Part shown: piece by piece, positions 33,999-42,401 of the stretch
How positions within the stretch are numbered: the stretch's first letter is position 1
Layout: the number at the start of each line of letters is the position of its first letter
From: Escherichia phage vB_EcoM_G17
Length of the DNA stretch: 64,000 bases
Reading direction: 5' to 3' (one strand)
Sequence record: MK327931.1
The notes under the pieces: generated by a model
What the model was told of the DNA's origin: nothing
What the model saw: the letters and a program-made list of their open reading frames with translations, nothing else
The model's database searches: none
Translations under genes and position numbers: made by a program

Positions 33999-34024
33999 CG
34001 TTTGTATTCCCTTACGTTTATTAA

Positions 34025-34055
34025 GTTAAAAAGAAAGCCTCCGTCATTGGAGGCT
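34025..34055 (-). terminator. Rho-independent terminator upstream of the polymerase gene
   Basis: agcctcc-gtcatt-ggaggct stem followed on the minus strand by UUCUUUUU. Confidence 0.55.
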
Positions 34056-34077
34056 ATTTAATATATTTTAGTACTAA

Positions 34078-34380
34078 TTAGTAATCATCTGCTTGTGGAA
34101 GATTATTAGTAACACTAAGAATAGTTTCGATATTATCGAGTTTATTTTGTTTGTCAAAGTAATCACCTTTGTACATACGTTGTGCAGCTTGTTTGATATC
34201 AGATGCATCGATACCAAGTTCATCAGAAACACTAGAAACAAAATCAGATAAGGATGCTTTGGTATCATCAATGAAAGTTAGTTGTACAACAATGTTGTTA
34301 AGTGCATCGCCGAGACGTTTACGTTGTTCATCGTTTAGATCACGAATTTCAACTTTAACTTCTTTTTTAGATTTAGCCAT
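34078..34380 (-). CDS. Hypothetical protein (about 100 aa)
   Basis: ORF-track start is TTG; ATG at 34380 (MAKSKKEVKV) has a GGAGAAA SD. Confidence 0.5.
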   Translation of the reverse strand: MAKSKKEVKVEIRDLNDEQRKRLGDALNNIVVQLTFIDDTKASLSDFVSSVSDELGIDASDIKQAAQRMYKGDYFDKQNKLDNIETILSVTNNLPQADDY

Positions 34381-34404
34381 TTTGTATTTCTCCATGTGTG
34401 TTTT

Positions 34405-34436
34405 CAAAAAAATGTCACCTCACCACAATCGGTGAG
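34405..34436 (-). terminator. Terminator-like hairpin after the tail-fibre assembly gene
   Basis: ctcacc-acaatc-ggtgag stem followed on the minus strand by a run of seven U. Confidence 0.45.
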
Positions 34437-34470
34437 ATGACTTAATTGTATCACGTCTTTACGTGTTGTC

Positions 34471-34986
34471 TCATTTTTTTTCCGGTTTAACTGGAAATGA
34501 AAATGTTTTCTTGATCATGTCTGCTGGTTTGATTGAATTCAATTGCGTTACATAATCTTTCAATTTTACAAACAATACAGCTTCTTCATCAGTTGCTAAC
34601 TCAAGATCCATAGCAGTTTTTAAGTGTCCAAGTTCTTGAATTGCAATGTATTTCAAATTAGATAATTCATTTTTTAGGCGTTCAATTTTTTCTTCTTTAG
34701 TTTCAATATAGTCATGAATAGTATTTCCATCGTAAACCATACCATAAAGTTTGTTAATATCACCATCATATTCAATTTCAGAAACACTAAAACCTAAAGG
34801 TACTAGATCATAAATGTTATATGATGCTGAAACAATTAAACCATTAGTATCATACATAAATTTTGCTTTATTAATGTCAAACAATTCACGAGATTCATAC
34901 CAATCCATACCTTCATCGGACATCATATACAAAGAATTAGGATTACCACCTTCTTTTTCATACATCTTAAAATTTGTTAGTTGCAT
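34471..34986 (-). CDS. Tail fibre assembly chaperone (Tfa-like)
   Basis: Start placed at MQLTNFKMYEKEGGN (ATG 34986, AAGGAA SD); ...DWYESREL...GFSVSEIEYDGD... pattern of Tfa proteins; directly downstream of the tail fibre gene. Confidence 0.55.
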   Translation of the reverse strand: MQLTNFKMYEKEGGNPNSLYMMSDEGMDWYESRELFDINKAKFMYDTNGLIVSASYNIYDLVPLGFSVSEIEYDGDINKLYGMVYDGNTIHDYIETKEEKIERLKNELSNLKYIAIQELGHLKTAMDLELATDEEAVLFVKLKDYVTQLNSIKPADMIKKTFSFPVKPEKK

Positions 34987-34996
34987 TACACATTCC

Positions 34997-36607
34997 TTAT
35001 TGTTGACGTACTGTTTCCCAGTTACCATTTATTTGCATTTGAACATAGCGATAACTAATTCGTTCTAAGTGAGTGCCTGAACTACCATTAACAGAAATCC
35101 ATACGCCATCCATAAATGCACCTTCTGGTGTATATGTCCATGAAGAATCAGGTATTTTACTTGTTTCAATACGTGCACTCAAACGAATACTTTGTACGTT
35201 ATTAGTACTAATTTGCAAAGTAACGTTGCCACTAGCATCAGCAGCAGTACCGTTAATTGAACGAACAATATTTTTACCACCAACAGTAGCTGAGTTGTTA
35301 GAAACAGTTAATGATGGAGCAGCTAACGTACCAGAAGAGTTTACAGTAACTTCTGCTCCACCGGAACGTAATCTCAATGTATTATTTGAAGAGTTATGAT
35401 ACACTGCCGCACGCTCACCACCGCTTGCGTTACGGAAATATAGAACTAATGATGTATCATTTGACTTAATTGACGCACTGTTTGCAATAGTCAATGAACC
35501 AGTCATTGTATCACCAGTTTTTAGTACATAACGAGTGTTTGCAACTTTTTCACTCAATGCGACGTTAGATTCAGCAATGTTATATAGATATGCAACGTTA
35601 AAGTGTTCCACATCAATGTTACTAATACCATGATAGTGTGGTTGGTTTCCACCAAGTGTGTTAGTGTTTCCACTAAATGAGTGAATGTGGTCTGGTGCTT
35701 CGTTAATGTTATTGATTACAGTTGGTATACCGTTATCATTACTTGAAGTTAACGCATTTAGACCACTACGGTCCATACCTTTTAGTGCTTGACTATGACC
35801 ATGACGACCAGCAGCCCCTGTGGTCCCACTAAAACTAAATGAGTGTGATGGTAATTGGGCAACACTTAATACTGTGCCGCTAATATTACCGCTACTACCA
35901 ATAACACTATCAGTTTTAGTTACACCTGATGTGGATATCCCTTTTAAGTACGCGTTTTGGTTAAGGTTTGGTACTTGTTTGGTAATTGTACCATTTTCCC
36001 CCTCCCATTGCCACCACATACCATCAGCAAAACACCAACCGTCAGACGTTTTCCACGGAGCACCTTGTGAACCGTTTCTCCCACTTTGTCCATTCGATTG
36101 TCCTGACATTTGTTCACGTATACTAGCAACAGATTGACCAGAAGTCAATGAATATTGTGTAATAGCACCAGGTTTAAGTGAAGTGTAAAGACCAGTTGGA
36201 CCAGAACCACCACTAGAAGCAGTAGGGAATACAATGTTTAAGTTTGTTCCACTAATACTTGCACTAGGAACAGTACTACTACTATAAGTTACACTTTCTA
36301 CTTTTAAATTTAGTTTTCTATTTACTTCATCAAGTGAAATTCTAATTGGTTCTAAAATGGTATCAGTATCGTATACTGCAATCCAACTAGTACCGTTATG
36401 ATACTTCAAAACTAACTCGTTTCTATCAAAGACCATTGCACCTTGTTCACCAGTTGGTAAAGTTTGTACTGGTATGATAACTGATGACGAGTTAAAACGA
36501 ATAGGTCTTGGGTTAGTTGGTGTACCACCAAGCACTATTAGTTCTAAAGATCCATTAGCACCAGTACTGGTCATTGTATCCAATGGGTTATTAAAACTTA
36601 TGCTCAT
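34997..36607 (-). CDS. Tail fibre protein with tail-collar-type domain
   Basis: 536 aa, Ser/Gly/Thr/Asn-rich; ...LSVAQLPSHSFSFSGTTGAAGRHGHSQ... resembles the tail-collar motif; followed by a Tfa-like gene. Confidence 0.7.
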   Translation of the reverse strand: MSISFNNPLDTMTSTGANGSLELIVLGGTPTNPRPIRFNSSSVIIPVQTLPTGEQGAMVFDRNELVLKYHNGTSWIAVYDTDTILEPIRISLDEVNRKLNLKVESVTYSSSTVPSASISGTNLNIVFPTASSGGSGPTGLYTSLKPGAITQYSLTSGQSVASIREQMSGQSNGQSGRNGSQGAPWKTSDGWCFADGMWWQWEGENGTITKQVPNLNQNAYLKGISTSGVTKTDSVIGSSGNISGTVLSVAQLPSHSFSFSGTTGAAGRHGHSQALKGMDRSGLNALTSSNDNGIPTVINNINEAPDHIHSFSGNTNTLGGNQPHYHGISNIDVEHFNVAYLYNIAESNVALSEKVANTRYVLKTGDTMTGSLTIANSASIKSNDTSLVLYFRNASGGERAAVYHNSSNNTLRLRSGGAEVTVNSSGTLAAPSLTVSNNSATVGGKNIVRSINGTAADASGNVTLQISTNNVQSIRLSARIETSKIPDSSWTYTPEGAFMDGVWISVNGSSGTHLERISYRYVQMQINGNWETVRQQ

Positions 36608-36638
36608 GTATAAATCCCTTTATGATTAATATATACTA

Positions 36639-36646
36639 TATTTATT
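36639..36646 (-). promoter_or_regulatory. Late-promoter-like AATAAATA element upstream of the tail fibre gene
   Basis: Plus-strand tatttatt, 32 nt upstream of the tail fibre ATG. Confidence 0.3.
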
Positions 36647-36647
36647 C

Positions 36648-36956
36648 CTATAGCAAGTCGTTATCCATATCATCCCATACGGAATCAATAATGTTGGCTG
36701 CTATCTTTTTAGACATTTTAAACCACTCGGTATTGGGTTGTCTAGTTGCATTCATCTGCTTAAGCCTTTTATGTATTTCTTTTTCAGCCAAACGTGCATC
36801 ATCAAAATGAACTTCATGATATACTTCAAAGTCACGAAATGGTGTAGCAGTCTGATACGTTCTTAGACGTTCTGTCATTTCTGATTTTGAAGTAAAACCA
36901 ATTTTAACATACTCAGGCCATGCAGAATTTATTATAACATAACATATCTGTGACAT
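36648..36956 (-). CDS. T5orf172 / GIY-YIG-like domain protein (stand-alone)
   Basis: Start placed at MSQICYVIINSAWPEYVKIGFT (GGAGA SD); CYVII...KIGFT...RL..Y pattern typical of the T5orf172 family. Confidence 0.5.
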   Translation of the reverse strand: MSQICYVIINSAWPEYVKIGFTSKSEMTERLRTYQTATPFRDFEVYHEVHFDDARLAEKEIHKRLKQMNATRQPNTEWFKMSKKIAANIIDSVWDDMDNDLL

Positions 36957-36995
36957 AGATTCAATCTCCATCATTAATATGGAGATATTTATCTA

Positions 36996-37355
36996 TCAAC
37001 TAATAGTGAATTTCAAACCAATATCTATTAAACGTTGAAAAGGATTATGGGGCTGAAATTCAGAAGGTTCTTGTGTAATGTTTAGTACTGGAGCGTCTGA
37101 GTGTAATTGTGACATACGTTCCCTATAATGATCTATGTATTCTTCATATAACATATCTTCAGTATGTGTGTTTAGTATATCTTCTATAAAAGAATCTAAA
37201 CTATAATCCAATCTATCATCATTATAATACAATGTTTCAGTGGCTTCATCATATCCAACTAACGTACCATAAGGAACATTTATTTCTATATTTGAGTACT
37301 GACTCTTTAAGTACTCTTCTTTGTTAAATTTGTATACAGTTAACATCCGTGTCAA
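36996..37355 (-). CDS. Hypothetical protein (119 aa)
   Basis: ORF between the two T5orf172-type genes. Confidence 0.45.
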   Translation of the reverse strand: MTRMLTVYKFNKEEYLKSQYSNIEINVPYGTLVGYDEATETLYYNDDRLDYSLDSFIEDILNTHTEDMLYEEYIDHYRERMSQLHSDAPVLNITQEPSEFQPHNPFQRLIDIGLKFTIS

Positions 37356-37369
37356 CTCCTTTAGATTGT

Positions 37370-38293
37370 TTACTTAAAAGTATTTACAATTTCTAAAACA
37401 CTTTCAAGATACTTAGCATCAAATGTTTCAGTAAATCCTGACGGTAACTCTTCAGTACTTACAACACCACTTTCAATGTATTTCTTTATGAACTTTTCCA
37501 ACAGTAATGGTTGATTGCCATCTTCAAAGTAGCGTTCTACAAGTACTTCATGCTCGAACTCAGAATTGCGACTTTGTTCGTTTACACGGCGTTTCATATC
37601 ACCAGTGATTCCATACTTGTACACCGTCTTGTCATTGTTAGTTAGTTTTTGAACATAGAAATATCCAGGTTTTGATGGTTGATAACCATACTCACCACAT
37701 GATGGACATCCTCTTCCTGCCATATGAGATTTGGGTATTTGTTTAAAGACACCATGTTCAGGACAAATAATATCCACATGTTCATCACTAGTCTTGTAAT
37801 CCACCAAGCTATAATCATACTTATGGTTATGGATAGGCGACACAAGTTCAATGAAACGTTCAGTACTTCTTCCACCTTTACCAGAACATATTCCACAACT
37901 AGTTTTTCCTTTTAATAATGTTGCGGCTGATACTTCCCAATCATGCACATCATTCGGATCATTATGACATGTAACGATGACTCGCCCATTACTGTCACTT
38001 TGTTTTTTGTAGATAGTTTTCTCAAATGACAATGTTGGATGGATGGTTTTAACTTTTTCAATAAACGTTTCGGTCGTGTATGCTGTGTTTTTTTGACAAA
38101 TGTTACATCCTTTTGCAGAAGGTCGGACTATTTGCATAGGAGTGATTTTGAAATAATGACAACCTTCTACACAATAAAGTTCAACCTGTTTATGAGCATT
38201 AATATATACCATTTTATCAAACAAATACACACCAGTACCATACTTTTCATTCACTGCATTAATAAATTTTTCTTCATTTGGATTCATTGTCAT
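37370..38293 (-). CDS. Homing-endonuclease-like protein: three Cys/His zinc-ribbon-like repeats plus C-terminal T5orf172 domain
   Basis: Three ~60-aa repeats (FIEKV...IHP...Y.Y...V.I.C..HG.F......H..G.GCP.C); C-terminal KTVYKYGITGDMKRRVNEQ T5orf172-like domain. Confidence 0.5.
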   Translation of the reverse strand: MTMNPNEEKFINAVNEKYGTGVYLFDKMVYINAHKQVELYCVEGCHYFKITPMQIVRPSAKGCNICQKNTAYTTETFIEKVKTIHPTLSFEKTIYKKQSDSNGRVIVTCHNDPNDVHDWEVSAATLLKGKTSCGICSGKGGRSTERFIELVSPIHNHKYDYSLVDYKTSDEHVDIICPEHGVFKQIPKSHMAGRGCPSCGEYGYQPSKPGYFYVQKLTNNDKTVYKYGITGDMKRRVNEQSRNSEFEHEVLVERYFEDGNQPLLLEKFIKKYIESGVVSTEELPSGFTETFDAKYLESVLEIVNTFK

Positions 38294-38351
38294 TTCTCTT
38301 CTTCATTTATAATGTACGCGTATTATTACACAAAAAATGTGACATGTCAAC

Positions 38352-38392
38352 ACAAAAAAGAAAAGGGACTCCGAAGAGTCCCTATTGTTTTT
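38352..38392. terminator. Bidirectional rho-independent terminator after the capsid gene
   Basis: gggactc-cgaa-gagtccc stem flanked by an A-run and a T-run. Confidence 0.65.
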
Positions 38393-38426
38393 AATTTCTT
38401 GATTAAATCTTTTAAATCGATTACAA

Positions 38427-39602
38427 TTACATGAAAGTAACGTTTTTGATAGCGATTTTGCTGTAGTAGTCAGCAGCGTTACCAAGAGAAGAAGTACTAT
38501 CAGTCAATTGTACATAACCATACCTGGTAAGGAAAGTTGTGACCAATTCCCCAGTGTTAGGGTCCATTACAGTACCGGAAGCCATTAGTGGGATGTATGG
38601 GCAATAGAACACACCAGCATCAGTTTCTGCATTACCTTTATAACCAATTAGAATATCTTCTGCATCACTTGCATAAGTATCAACAAAAATACGCATAGTG
38701 CTGTTTAGAGTACCTACAAACTTAACGTTAGTTGGGGCTTCGAAAGTACCTTCAGTGGTACGTGCAAAGCTAGAAGTAGTAGCAGATTGTAGAATGGTTA
38801 GTGCAGTTGGGGAAACAACAGCCCAGTTTGCAGCACCACGCTTAGTACGACGAGCAACTTCGTTTGCTTGACGGTTAATTAGAGTTGCTAGAGCAGCGTG
38901 CTCATCACCAACGAAGGTTGCAACACCAGTAACTTTAGATTGGTCATAAGTTACAGCAGCAGCACCAGGTAGTGCACGTAGACGGCTTAGTAGCTCTTGG
39001 TCGATTTCTACGGTAACTTCTTGAGCGATTGCAGCCATTAGTTCTGCTTCAACGTCAACACCATGTTGGGATTGTGCATCTTGTGCAGATTCAACAGTCC
39101 AACGTGCAGATAGACGACGAGATTTCGCTTCAACAGTTTCACGTAGAATACGGATGTTAACGCGACGACCCATAGTACCTTCTAGTTGGCTAGTAGGAGC
39201 AGCTTGTGGGTTGCTATTATCCGCATTTAGATCACCAGAGTAAGATTTAGCGATTTTGTATGGAGAAAGCATTTCTTCACCAGCGATTACACCAGGTGCG
39301 TTATCAGCATATTGTACACGTAGGGTGTGGATCTGACCAACTGGACCAGTCATAGGTTGAACACCGATGATTTCGTTAGCAATAACGGTTGGCATTACAC
39401 GACGCATAATTGGTAGAATCACTTTGTTTAGAGTAGCGATGTTACCAGCGGTAGTTGCACCAGAAGTTGCGGATTCAGTTAGCATAACTTTACGATGGTT
39501 ATCAAGAACAGTTTCCATTACAGACTTACGAGTACCCTGTAGACCTTCAACTAGTTTCTCTTTTACTGCTACCCATTTGGATTCATTTAGTAGTTGTGAC
39601 AT
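38427..39602 (-). CDS. gp23: Major capsid protein (T4 gp23-like)
   Basis: 391 aa. ...IANEIIGVQPMTGPVGQIHTLRVQY..., ...VEAKSRRLSARWTVESAQD..., ...IGYKGNAETDAGVFYCPYIPL... collinear with T4 gp23 as recalled; AAGGAG SD; strong codon bias. Confidence 0.88.
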   Translation of the reverse strand: MSQLLNESKWVAVKEKLVEGLQGTRKSVMETVLDNHRKVMLTESATSGATTAGNIATLNKVILPIMRRVMPTVIANEIIGVQPMTGPVGQIHTLRVQYADNAPGVIAGEEMLSPYKIAKSYSGDLNADNSNPQAAPTSQLEGTMGRRVNIRILRETVEAKSRRLSARWTVESAQDAQSQHGVDVEAELMAAIAQEVTVEIDQELLSRLRALPGAAAVTYDQSKVTGVATFVGDEHAALATLINRQANEVARRTKRGAANWAVVSPTALTILQSATTSSFARTTEGTFEAPTNVKFVGTLNSTMRIFVDTYASDAEDILIGYKGNAETDAGVFYCPYIPLMASGTVMDPNTGELVTTFLTRYGYVQLTDSTSSLGNAADYYSKIAIKNVTFM

Positions 39603-39636
39603 TATATATCTCCTTAAAGATGTTATATTCGTTTTT

Positions 39637-39667
39637 CAGTATGATATTATTTATAGAACTGAAAAAT
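39637..39667 (-). promoter_or_regulatory. Late promoter (TATAAATA) with extended conserved element, upstream of the capsid gene
   Basis: Minus-sense ...cagttcTATAAATAATATCATACTgaaaaa...; TATAAATA at 39647-39654, about 45 nt upstream of the ATG. Confidence 0.6.
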
Positions 39668-39693
39668 TTGATTATTAAAATGCTTTAAAATGT

Positions 39694-40809
39694 TTATTTT
39701 TTATTGATACCTGAAAGAACATCTAGTTCTTTTAGGAATGCCATATCGTCAGCGGTCATTTCTTCGCTTTCAACAATAGCCTGACGGTTGCCAGTGATTA
39801 CTTTACCTTCTGCAAGAGTTTTCTTAGCGGAAGACTGAACTGCTTGACGAGTGGTAGCAGATTCATTTACTTTAGTACCGTTAAGTACTGACTTATGGTA
39901 CTTGCTGAAATCTTCTTTAAGCTTTTCAGTAGGTGAAGTAGCTAGAAGGGATTCCATAATTTGTTTTTGCTGTGCAGTTAGTGGTTTTACTAGTTCAGAC
40001 ATAATCGCATTACGTGCTTGTGCATCTTCCATAATACGTAGTTTGGTTTTAGCAGCTTTAACGGCATTAGCAGTTTCATGTAGTTCTTGCTTAACTTGAG
40101 CAATTTCATCTTCTTTAGATTTAATTGATTCAGTTAGGGAACGTAGCAATGAGTTTTCATTAAATTGTTTGACATTAAACTCTTGAGCAAATGCTTCAAA
40201 GATTTTACGACCAAACATATTTTGTTTTGCTTCCACTAGATCTTGTTTCAACGCATATAGATTCTTCTGAGTGGTTTCTGCAATATATTTAGCAGCACTT
40301 TCAGATGTACGTTTGATGAAGTTATTACGAGCTTCAGCAATTTGACGTGAACCTTCAGCAAGTAGTTTAACGCGAGTTTCTACTAGTTGGCGTTTTTCAG
40401 TGTGGAATTCTTTTAGCTCTTCTGCTAGGATACCGTTAGAAAAATTAACGAATTTACCCATGCATTCATGAAGATGCTTACGTTCTTTACGCATTTGTTT
40501 AACTTCTTCAGCCAAAACAGAGTTTGAAAACGCAGAGAAATTGCTTAGTGTTTTACGTAGAGTTACACGATCTTCAACGAGACGTTTTTTCTCTTCATAT
40601 ACAGCACCCATTTCTTCAGCAATGACTTGAGTAACCATCGTGTTCAAACCTTCGGTTAGTTCAGCCAAATCTTGCTGATAACGGCCTTTCATTTCTTCAC
40701 GCATCTCTGCGGCTAGTGTATTCTTTTCTTCATTCCATGCTTCCTGAATTAGCTGTTTTGCCTCATCAGAAAGAGATGATTCTTTTAGAAGCTTTTCTAA
40801 TTTAGACAT
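39694..40809 (-). CDS. gp22: Prohead core scaffolding protein (T4 gp22-like)
   Basis: 371-aa coiled-coil-rich E/K/A/Q protein between the protease and capsid genes; AAAGGAGA SD. Confidence 0.6.
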   Translation of the reverse strand: MSKLEKLLKESSLSDEAKQLIQEAWNEEKNTLAAEMREEMKGRYQQDLAELTEGLNTMVTQVIAEEMGAVYEEKKRLVEDRVTLRKTLSNFSAFSNSVLAEEVKQMRKERKHLHECMGKFVNFSNGILAEELKEFHTEKRQLVETRVKLLAEGSRQIAEARNNFIKRTSESAAKYIAETTQKNLYALKQDLVEAKQNMFGRKIFEAFAQEFNVKQFNENSLLRSLTESIKSKEDEIAQVKQELHETANAVKAAKTKLRIMEDAQARNAIMSELVKPLTAQQKQIMESLLATSPTEKLKEDFSKYHKSVLNGTKVNESATTRQAVQSSAKKTLAEGKVITGNRQAIVESEEMTADDMAFLKELDVLSGINKK

Positions 40810-40856
40810 TCGTTCTCTCCTTTAAGTACTGAAATATCTGTACTTCAACATACAGA

Positions 40857-40864
40857 TATTTATA
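40857..40864 (-). promoter_or_regulatory. Late-promoter-like TATAAATA upstream of the scaffold gene
   Basis: Plus-strand tatttata, about 50 nt upstream of the scaffold ATG. Confidence 0.45.
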
Positions 40865-41499: not shown

Positions 41500-41519
41500 A
41501 ATGATCTCCTTTCAGATAT

Positions 41520-42368
41520 TTATTTTAGTTTAGGTTGTGCTTTGCTTAGTGGTGATTTAGAATTAGATGCAGTAGTTTTTGGTGCTTTAACATCTTTCAT
41601 TTCACCGCGAGCATTTTTACCAAGATCTAGGCTATCTTTTGGTAGAACAGATTTATCATCTAGGTCTAGTAGTGGGGCTTGGTCAGTTTTCTTAGCGAAT
41701 TTAACTGGCTCTGCTCCTGCTACTGGAGATTTAGCTTCTGGTGCTACTGGAGATTTGGAATGAGTGCCAGCTTTTTCTTTCTTATCAACTGGAGCAACTT
41801 TTTCTAGTTTGAAGGATTCACCGAATTTTTCATCGCCGAATTCAACATCAGCAAATTCGTCGTCACCGTCAACACCAACTTCTTCTTCGCTATCTTCTAC
41901 TTCTTCTTCAGAATCTAGATCAACTTCACCGTCACCGATTTCATCAAACATTTGTTGTAGGCCACGGAAAGCATCTTGGATTGATTCCCATTGGTCTTCG
42001 GAAGGAACATCAGCATCAGCTTTCACTTCAACGTCAACATCGTCTTCACCGTCACCATCTGCATCAGCAGAGAATTCAACTTCTTCTTCTGCACTTTCAT
42101 CTTCTTCACCAAGGGTGTATTCGATTTCAGCATTTAGACCTTCGTCTGGTTGTACATCAAAATCTTCGTCAAGCTTTTCTTCATCTTTGACTTTAACTTC
42201 GACTTCACAATCTTCATCGTCGTCTTCATCTTCCATGCTTTCTTCTAGTTGTTTGTTAATTTCTTGAGCTTGCTCAACGAAATACTTACGCATTTTTTTA
42301 TCAGCAATATCTTGTTCGCCATTTGCAAACGCCGCAATTGCTTCTTGTAGTAGTTTTAAATTCGCCAT
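41520..42368 (-). CDS. Highly acidic prohead core / internal protein (gp67/gp68-position)
   Basis: Start placed at MANLKLL (GGAGGA SD); long D/E-rich segments; between portal and protease as the T4 core proteins. Confidence 0.5.
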   Translation of the reverse strand: MANLKLLQEAIAAFANGEQDIADKKMRKYFVEQAQEINKQLEESMEDEDDDEDCEVEVKVKDEEKLDEDFDVQPDEGLNAEIEYTLGEEDESAEEEVEFSADADGDGEDDVDVEVKADADVPSEDQWESIQDAFRGLQQMFDEIGDGEVDLDSEEEVEDSEEEVGVDGDDEFADVEFGDEKFGESFKLEKVAPVDKKEKAGTHSKSPVAPEAKSPVAGAEPVKFAKKTDQAPLLDLDDKSVLPKDSLDLGKNARGEMKDVKAPKTTASNSKSPLSKAQPKLK

Positions 42369-42401
42369 TATATCCTCCATAGATATATTACATTCGTATA
42401 A

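Follow-up and report, generated by a model that had tools for sequence, protein, structure and literature searches.

Homing endonuclease genes (HEGs) of the T5orf172 type, exemplified by those encoding Gp165 and Gp174 of phage ICP1, combine a nuclease domain with tandem CapR/DUF723/DUF4397 zinc fingers and are subject to shuffling of domains and repeats; capsid genes are present in 31% of their genomic neighbourhoods (Barth, Dunham and Seed 2023; PMC10448857). The T5orf172 domain has been placed in the GIY-YIG superfamily, and one of its carriers, Odn (Gp88) of ICP1, in which the domain retains the catalytic Arg and Glu, was reported to be an origin-directed nuclease (PMC8263062). A further relative, CapR, derives from a HEG and acts through zinc fingers as a repressor of capsid genes (PMC8096241). 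Here we analyse a locus with similar components in a stretch of 64,000 nucleotides (nt) from Escherichia phage vB_EcoM_G17 (MK327931.1), hereafter the window. Positions 36648-38293 of the window, between a capsid gene and a tail-fibre gene, are occupied by three open reading frames (ORFs) on the minus strand: gA (36648-36974), gB (36996-37355) and gC (37370-38293). Probably, gC and its own promoter constitute a ~1-kb HEG cassette of the T5orf172 class, inserted in a recurrently used slot behind the capsid-gene terminator, while gB and gA are old residents of the locus.

The limits of the cassette were derived from the alignment of filled and empty genomes, in which homology runs through the capsid stop codon and the T-run of the terminator and restarts at the gB ATG. 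The intrinsic terminator of the capsid gene (38352-38383, minus strand; stem-loop 38364-38383, T-run 38352-38363), also recovered by a terminator scan, bounds the variable slot on its left and is conserved whether the slot is filled or empty. The cassette itself (37347-38351, minus strand, ~1005 nt) consists of a promoter, gC and a 23-nt right junction; in relatives with an empty site, such as PBECO4, a spacer of ~43 nt stands in its place. The promoter is of the sigma-70 type (TTGACA-17-AATAAT with a TG extension, matching at 11 of 12 positions; 38322-38350, minus strand) and represents the top match of this type in a 6-kb scan, with the A4 and vB_Ec-M-J alleles carrying TTGACA-17-TATAAT at the equivalent position. 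The right junction, ACAATCTAAAGGAGTTGACACGG (37347-37369, minus strand), contains the ribosome-binding site of gB and is common to the cassettes of the window, 121Q and SHEFM2K, whereas empty sites differ in sequence. An insertion of the transposon or insertion-sequence type was considered and rejected: there are no notable flanking direct or inverted repeats, no target-site duplication and no transposase or integrase domain, and the lack of terminal repeats and target-site duplications fits a HEG rather than a transposon. Cassette-bearing genomes have no terminator between gC and gB/gA, so that the cassette promoter may also drive early transcription of gB and gA and alter its timing relative to empty-site phages.

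The occupancy of the slot varies greatly among relatives. We measured slot size from the combined tblastn coordinates of the capsid protein and gB in ~50 genomes. Empty slots of 74-178 nt were found in PBECO4, SD-1, SD-6, SD-15, fEgEco12, CMSTMSU, CBB, Yen9-04, Erwinia phages, XbC2, Kaldavass and Hallingskeid, and in PBECO4, fEgEco12, the Salmonella SD phages, CMSTMSU, CBB, Yen9-04 and the Erwinia and Xanthomonas phages the gC-empty site is intact, with gB and gA kept. The 1083-nt slot with the window allele is shared by Sharanji, slurp01, IA-38, ECO103 4-12-1, EC22.5-2, Ecwhy_1 and WPEC5; the four-repeat 121Q allele occupies a slot of ~1265 nt in 12 genomes, and SHEFM2K, TH47 and JNE01 have one of ~1165 nt. 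Further slots measure 1037, 1353, 1770 (UE-S1, ph0011), 1966 (7t3, SE_PL), 1079 (Munch, Kae01) and 1339 nt (RaK2). Both subclades defined by the capsid gene include empty and variously filled slots, and the close relatives fEgEco12, Ecwhy_1 and vB_Ec-M-J display three different states. SHEFM2K and PBECO4 make a clean filled/empty pair, with 4 mismatches over gA and gB and none in the capsid gene past the junction region. Given the many close relatives that lack it, gC is dispensable.

The slot also accommodates genes other than gC. The SHEFM2K gene, distinct from gC, encodes a 332-residue protein with a canonical T5orf172 domain (26 bits). In Escherichia phage UE-S1 (L014, 1618-3276), the occupant is an unrelated 552-residue protein of phrog_3339 ('homing endonuclease') with a DUF7487 domain and a restriction-endonuclease-like match to MTES_1575 that, at 23.3 bits, lies under the Pfam threshold of 38.2; its presence implies that, as a landing pad, the slot downstream of the capsid gene accepts nuclease genes of more than one family. 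The slot of Salmonella phage 7t3 (L015, 1571-3320) contains a gene for a 363-residue CapR-plus-T5orf172-like protein and an extra 207-residue ORF for which no Pfam or PHROG match was found. In Cronobacter phage GAP32, a 77-residue ORF in the slot (GAP32_251; L012, 3675-3908) corresponds to the final portion of the nuclease domain of gC (phrog_681 positions 486-538, E 9e-11), and the YKYGIT...R core is deleted. By sequence, GAP32_251 is a decayed C-terminal remnant of a gC-type nuclease, representing the decay stage of the HEG life cycle. An 81%-identical gC was encountered in the same slot of a metagenome contig (ERZ15610127 NODE_88; L019, 3501-6900), which encodes a different tail fibre of 571 residues with a Gp53-like_C domain and has no adjacent tail-fibre assembly gene, so that the receptor-binding module next to the slot is evidently exchanged too.

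The product of gC, a putative free-standing T5orf172-type homing endonuclease of 307 amino acids (aa), comprises three repeats of ~60-70 aa with the pattern F...C-x(2-8)-H...C-x2-C and a C-terminal domain. Zinc-ribbon repeat 1 covers aa 6-69 (38087-38278; C41, C45/H46, C63, C66), repeat 2 aa 70-140 (37874-38086; C109/H110, H117, C133, C136) and repeat 3 aa 141-203 (37685-37873; C177, H180, C196, C199); the T5orf172-like domain with a predicted GIY-YIG fold follows at aa 204-307 (37373-37684; all minus strand) and displays GYFY(213), YKYG(228)IT, R236 and E289. gC matches DUF4379 with 24.7 bits (Pfam cut-off 24.5), DUF723 below threshold and phrog_681 ('endonuclease') at 7.6e-63, and its homologues have precomputed matches to PF05265 and PF14311. 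In an alignment of 38 sequences, nine cysteines of the repeats (C41, C63, C66, C109, C133, C136, C177, C196 and C199) are invariant, as are Y213 within GYFY, K226 and G228 within YKYGIT, and E289, with R236 conserved in at least 90% of the sequences. The AlphaFold model, for which 38 homologues served as input (mean predicted local distance difference test score 89.6), contains three repeated helix/beta-hairpin units and, after them, at residues 210-305, a beta-beta-alpha-beta-alpha-alpha domain. The complete model gave no informative Foldseek match, sequence searches of solved structures with gC and gA gave none at all, and no useful match came from NCBIfam. As judged from the model, the C-terminal domain is a T5orf172-like nuclease domain of the GIY-YIG fold, with predicted activity. 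The ratio of nonsynonymous to synonymous substitution rates (dN/dS) of 0.14-0.31 indicates purifying selection on gC.

A preceding analysis of the bare DNA (the sequence-only reading) had pointed to three genes interrupting the structural module, and three ORFs were indeed found between the Gp23-family capsid gene and the tail-fibre gene. It had also recognized a stand-alone T5orf172 protein, now confirmed as gA (49.5 bits against PF10544, cut-off 20, E 6.7e-13), and a 307-aa protein with three Cys/His repeats of ~60 aa fused to a C-terminal T5orf172 domain, a description that holds for gC with its Pfam score, discussed below, as the weak point. The free-standing homing-endonuclease architecture proposed for the 307-aa gene was correct: gC combines a terminal nuclease domain carrying the Arg/Glu pair and a GIY-type Tyr with zinc-finger repeats, and is a patchily distributed free-standing gene beside an essential gene with intact empty sites, all of which characterize T5orf172-type HEGs.

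Comparison of alleles and flanks provides further evidence of exchange at this site. Repeats 1 and 2 of the window gC share 62-69% identity with the allele of the distant Salmonella phage Munch (62% and 69%, respectively) and only 42-48% with the 121Q type (42% and 44% for the 121Q allele), whereas for repeat 3 and the nuclease domain identity is 79-100% with the 121Q and vB_Ec-M-J types and only 51-77% with Munch (repeat 3, 84% and 51% for 121Q and Munch, respectively). The window allele is thus, on sequence comparison, a chimera of two alleles. The slot is, furthermore, surrounded by a mosaic tract (36200-38800), delineated by mismatch counts against 121Q, PBECO4 and SHEFM2K: per 200 nt, there are 7-22 mismatches within 36200-37346 and 38400-38800, against mostly 0-1 and rarely up to 3-8 elsewhere, and outside the tract the genomes are more than 99.5% identical. 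The divergence is mostly synonymous, and the capsid and tail-fibre proteins are 100% identical to the 121Q and PBECO4 versions despite the nucleotide differences. Within the capsid gene, 22-26 of the 27-29 differences fall in the final third and include AGT/TCA swaps of serine codons. In gA, dS and dN relative to PBECO4 are 0.66 and 0.008, despite the near identity of the genomes elsewhere. Such a spike of divergence focused on the slot is the pattern expected of co-conversion tracts around a homing site and agrees with the 'boundaries of genetic exchange' described by Barth et al. 2023 (PMC10448857).

The two other genes behave differently from gC. At the same position, and with or without gC, gA and gB are found in Asteriusvirus, the Munch/Kae01 group, Mimasvirus (CBB, GAP32), Eneladusvirus (Yen9-04) and Erwinia, Serratia and Xanthomonas phages, and no empty site lacking gA and gB was detected among the related genera examined. 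The exception is the RaK2-type phages, which keep gB and a 408-aa gC-type gene, but in which gA is replaced by an unrelated ORF of 244 aa (ORF097 in Klebsiella phage RaK2; L009, 4423-5157) without a Pfam or PHROG match. Across genera, identity amounts to 65-76% for gA and 27-30% for gB, compared with ~50% for the tail fibre, ~68% for the scaffold and ~90% for the capsid protein, and dN/dS values of 0.01-0.05 (gA) and 0.03-0.10 (gB) signify strong purifying selection. From these comparisons, gA and gB are evidently old, selectively maintained residents of RaK2-like jumbo phages rather than cargo; their position within the conversion tract beside the slot accounts for the passive shuffling of their alleles. 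Both are probably non-structural accessory proteins.

For gA (minus strand), relatives suggest that the true start is probably M7 (36956), yielding a protein of 102 aa. Y12, K24-I-G26, R36, Y40 and E83 are invariant in the gA alignment, so that gA carries every catalytic-type residue of the gC domain (Y12, K24-I-G26, R36, E83) plus Y40. The gB stop codon and the earliest ATGs of the gA ORF are spanned by a palindrome, ATCTCCATCATTAATATGGAGAT (36964-36986). Possibly, this palindrome masks the in-frame ATGs ahead of M7, in which case initiation at M7, as in relatives, would be favoured. Bare T5orf172 proteins of ~90-120 aa resembling gA are common in sequence databases, where they occur without gB. 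The gene gB (36996-37346, minus strand), likely to start at the ATG at 37346 by comparison with relatives, encodes a 116-aa acidic protein (isoelectric point 4.4) that is found only in RaK2-like jumbo phages and matches only phrog_15724, with no Pfam match. Its structure, predicted from database homologues, shows an SH3-like beta-barrel followed by a helix, and a fold search returned weak SH3-like matches only, without a functional lead. It is conceivable, although rather unlikely, that gA is a HEG nuclease that has been domesticated and now serves its own core function (e.g., guided or restrained by gB, late in infection), or that the gA-gB pair or the surrounding sequence makes the site a recurrent landing pad for unrelated endonuclease genes.

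Under the favoured scenario, gC would be transcribed from the sigma-70-type, that is, host-type, promoter of the cassette, and its three treble-clef zinc-ribbon repeats would read specific DNA in a co-infecting relative with an empty or differently occupied slot. The C-terminal GIY-YIG-fold domain would then cut nearby, and recombinational repair off the gC-carrying genome would copy, besides the cassette, flanking markers in the capsid gene (its 3' end) to one side and in gB, gA and the tail-fibre gene (its 5' end) to the other. Several observations weigh against this interpretation. The score of gC against Pfam T5orf172 (PF10544) is 16.9 bits, under the gathering threshold of 20 bits; across gC alleles it is 14.8-18.5 bits, with the alignment limited to profile positions 1 to ~49. 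A profile-profile comparison of gA with the gC C-terminus, based on shallow alignments, gave a weak result (probability 9%). Four residues past the conserved Arg, gC has Gln instead of His/Tyr, and Odn likewise lacks His/Tyr there. Purifying selection is expected of an active HEG but equally of a domesticated gene. All strong gC homologues (38 phage records) are confined to this one slot in three genus-level groups, a distribution that would likewise result if gC had long been inherited vertically and deleted now and then. The architecture, catalytic-type residues, slot polymorphism, junctions, chimerism and mosaic flanks are observed here, whereas nuclease activity, a target site and present-day homing are inferred.

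If gC were an old vertical resident that is no longer mobile, the empty sites would be independent deletions and the mosaicism would reflect ordinary homologous recombination between co-infecting jumbo phages. The confinement of its strong homologues to a single slot, the right junction common to different alleles and the decay in place seen in GAP32 would be in line with such a history, which we nevertheless consider unlikely: the slot is also held by an unrelated endonuclease family (UE-S1, phrog_3339) and by the distinct T5orf172 gene of SHEFM2K, all slot states recur in both capsid-gene subclades, the divergence is sharply centred on the slot rather than genome-wide, and the catalytic-type residues of gC are intact under purifying selection. 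The same selection, together with the swapped DNA-binding repeats, which suggest retargeting, could instead signal co-option of a HEG-type protein, either as an exclusion nuclease against competing phages or satellites or as a DNA-binding regulator near the capsid gene. Precedents for both exist in Odn, a T5orf172 chimera directed against PLE satellites, and in CapR, a HEG-derived repressor of capsid genes. However, gC is absent from many close relatives, no satellite-like target was identified, and the insertion pattern with co-conversion-like flanks is what homing predicts; a purely regulatory role is further contradicted by the retained nuclease motifs. Co-option of gC is therefore improbable in our estimation.

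The remaining alternatives concern gA and gB. The sequence-only reading regarded gA, gB and gC as one mobile island between the capsid and tail-fibre genes, and indeed the three genes follow one another in a single orientation, lack a virion-protein annotation in fENko-Kae01, include two with T5orf172-type domains and lie in a region (36200-38800) that is a recombination mosaic as a whole. This view is, nonetheless, largely refuted and retains hardly any probability, given that gA and gB hold their position across genera regardless of gC, that gA shows the cross-genus identity and low dN/dS given above, that no site devoid of gA and gB was found and that the indel junctions bracket gC alone. 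A mobile insertion is present directly after the capsid terminator (gC with its promoter, ~37347-38351), but it is not a three-gene island. Likewise, of the two brackets proposed for the island, the capsid-gene terminator (38364-38383 plus the T-run) is real, whereas the tail-fibre promoter could not be confirmed: only an AT-rich spacer of 40 nt with the T4-late-like motif ATAAATAT separates gA from the tail-fibre gene, and this motif is not enriched across the window (11 found against 11.5 expected). With gA and gB being conserved residents, the right bracket of the mobile unit is the gB start. The synteny comparison suggested at the time gave a split answer, since gC has intact empty sites in relatives, whereas gA and gB are conserved in position with no empty site, save for the RaK2 group, which lacks gA, and this was the outcome named beforehand as refuting their mobility. 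Finally, gB and gA might be the binding and nuclease modules of an older homing endonuclease, split or degenerate and fixed in the lineage. In favour of this view, the genes are neighbours on the same strand, gA comprises a nuclease domain without any part for DNA binding, and RaK2 keeps gB while replacing gA. Yet, gB, acidic and SH3-like, shows neither a zinc finger nor any other signature of DNA binding and occurs in this phage clade only, bare T5orf172 proteins of gA size are common elsewhere without gB, and the strong purifying selection on both genes shows that they are not decaying, making a split origin very improbable.

The phages of the source lineage, Asteriusvirus, are jumbo phages of ~350 kb. 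Over the 5.3 kb searched (34400-39700), the window shares 100% identity with Escherichia phages Sharanji and slurp01 and 96-98% with 121Q, PBECO4 and others. The gene order, all on the minus strand, is DNA polymerase, a small ORF, tail-fibre assembly protein, tail fibre, gA, gB, gC, gp23-like capsid, scaffold and prohead protease. The capsid gene (38427-39602, minus strand) belongs to the Gp23 family (Pfam 1.3e-89) and the tail-fibre gene (34997-36607, minus strand) to phrog_13229 (1e-273). gA, gB and gC appear to be non-structural; in the fENko-Kae01 annotation, 'identified with LC-MS/MS' (liquid chromatography with tandem mass spectrometry) is attached to neighbouring genes and not to the homologues of these three. 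The 64-kb window contains no second T5orf172 or zinc-ribbon paralogue, an Rfam search over 34000-40000 detected no RNA family, and neither the Sharanji nor the fEgEco12 genome paper discusses the locus in the capsid/tail-fibre interval. The longest tail-fibre assembly ORF (34471-35028) overlaps the end of the tail-fibre gene (34997-36607) by 32 nt, probably an artefact of ORF calling, because the Sharanji annotation starts this gene further downstream (516-nt gene). Directly upstream of the prohead protease gene, the minus strand at 41520-42380 encodes an extremely acidic 286-aa protein of Asp/Glu-rich low complexity, the homologues of which in CBB and Yen9-04 are annotated as structural. Matches to the T4-late-like motif (ATAAATAT or TATAAATA) occur on the minus strand at 36638-36645, 36985-36992, 39648, 40856-40863 and 41516-41523, so that the tail-fibre, gA, capsid, scaffold and protease genes each have one 15-45 nt ahead of their start; these suggestive positions raise the possibility that gA has a late promoter of its own.

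The locus offers a natural example of HEG-type turnover in jumbo coliphages that are under development for therapy. Near-identical genomes differ by a nuclease cassette of ~1 kb, a single slot holds, in different genomes, at least three endonuclease genes that are unrelated or related only distantly, as well as a decayed remnant, and reshuffling around it has affected gA, gB and the facing ends of the capsid (3') and tail-fibre (5') genes. Sharanji or SHEFM2K and PBECO4 constitute natural filled/empty pairs in which homing by a T5orf172 HEG is directly testable.

A comparable arrangement is known from T4, in which the GIY-YIG HEG segD resides directly downstream of gene 23. Seg enzymes spread by cleavage and co-conversion of flanking markers. 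Like segD, gC is a (putative) free-standing HEG of the GIY-YIG superfamily located immediately downstream of a gp23-type major capsid gene; gC and the capsid gene share a strand, however, whereas segD lies on the strand opposite gene 23. In Seg proteins, a canonical GIY-YIG domain is N-terminal and the DNA-binding part C-terminal; in gC the order is reversed, DNA binding is assigned to zinc-ribbon repeats and the second motif is K-Y-G. We detected no sequence similarity between gC and Seg proteins and, given the reversed domain order, rejected gC as a Seg-type protein; the position downstream of the capsid gene is all that they share.

Among the other systems, Odn (ICP1 Gp88) has the same type of nuclease domain as gC, with Arg and Glu conserved and no His/Tyr in helix 1, and CapR, encoded by PLE, has the same type of zinc finger. 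Odn, however, uses a RepA_N DNA-binding domain and targets the replication origin of a satellite, and CapR has lost its nuclease domain, whereas gC retains both repeats and nuclease domain and belongs to a dispensable, polymorphic cassette. The ~100-aa gA resembles the minimal stand-alone T5orf172/MUG113 proteins (e.g., the small T5-like phage proteins that match it), which consist of the T5orf172 domain only and many of which have 91-120 aa. Unlike these, gA occupies a fixed position beside gB over at least five jumbo-phage genera and is conserved as well as the scaffold and protease proteins.

The closest counterpart of gC is the 'T5orf172 homing endonuclease' class already described by Barth et al. 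2023 (PMC10448857), into which the cassette fits. As in those HEGs, a C-terminal domain of the T5orf172/GIY-YIG superfamily follows N-terminal CapR/DUF723/DUF4379-type repeats arranged as 'beads on a string', and a free-standing gene adjoins an essential one, here that for the capsid, with genetic exchange bounded at the site and with repeats and domains shuffled between alleles. What sets gC apart is its host lineage, the RaK2-like jumbo coliphages, not listed there as enriched, its divergent nuclease domain, sub-threshold in Pfam, and the restriction of its lineage to one slot in three genus-level groups. The gC cassette is accordingly a further case of a described class and introduces no new principle, but it extends the picture of nucleases that 'sit at boundaries of genetic exchange' from ICP1 and T5-like phages to the RaK2-like phages.

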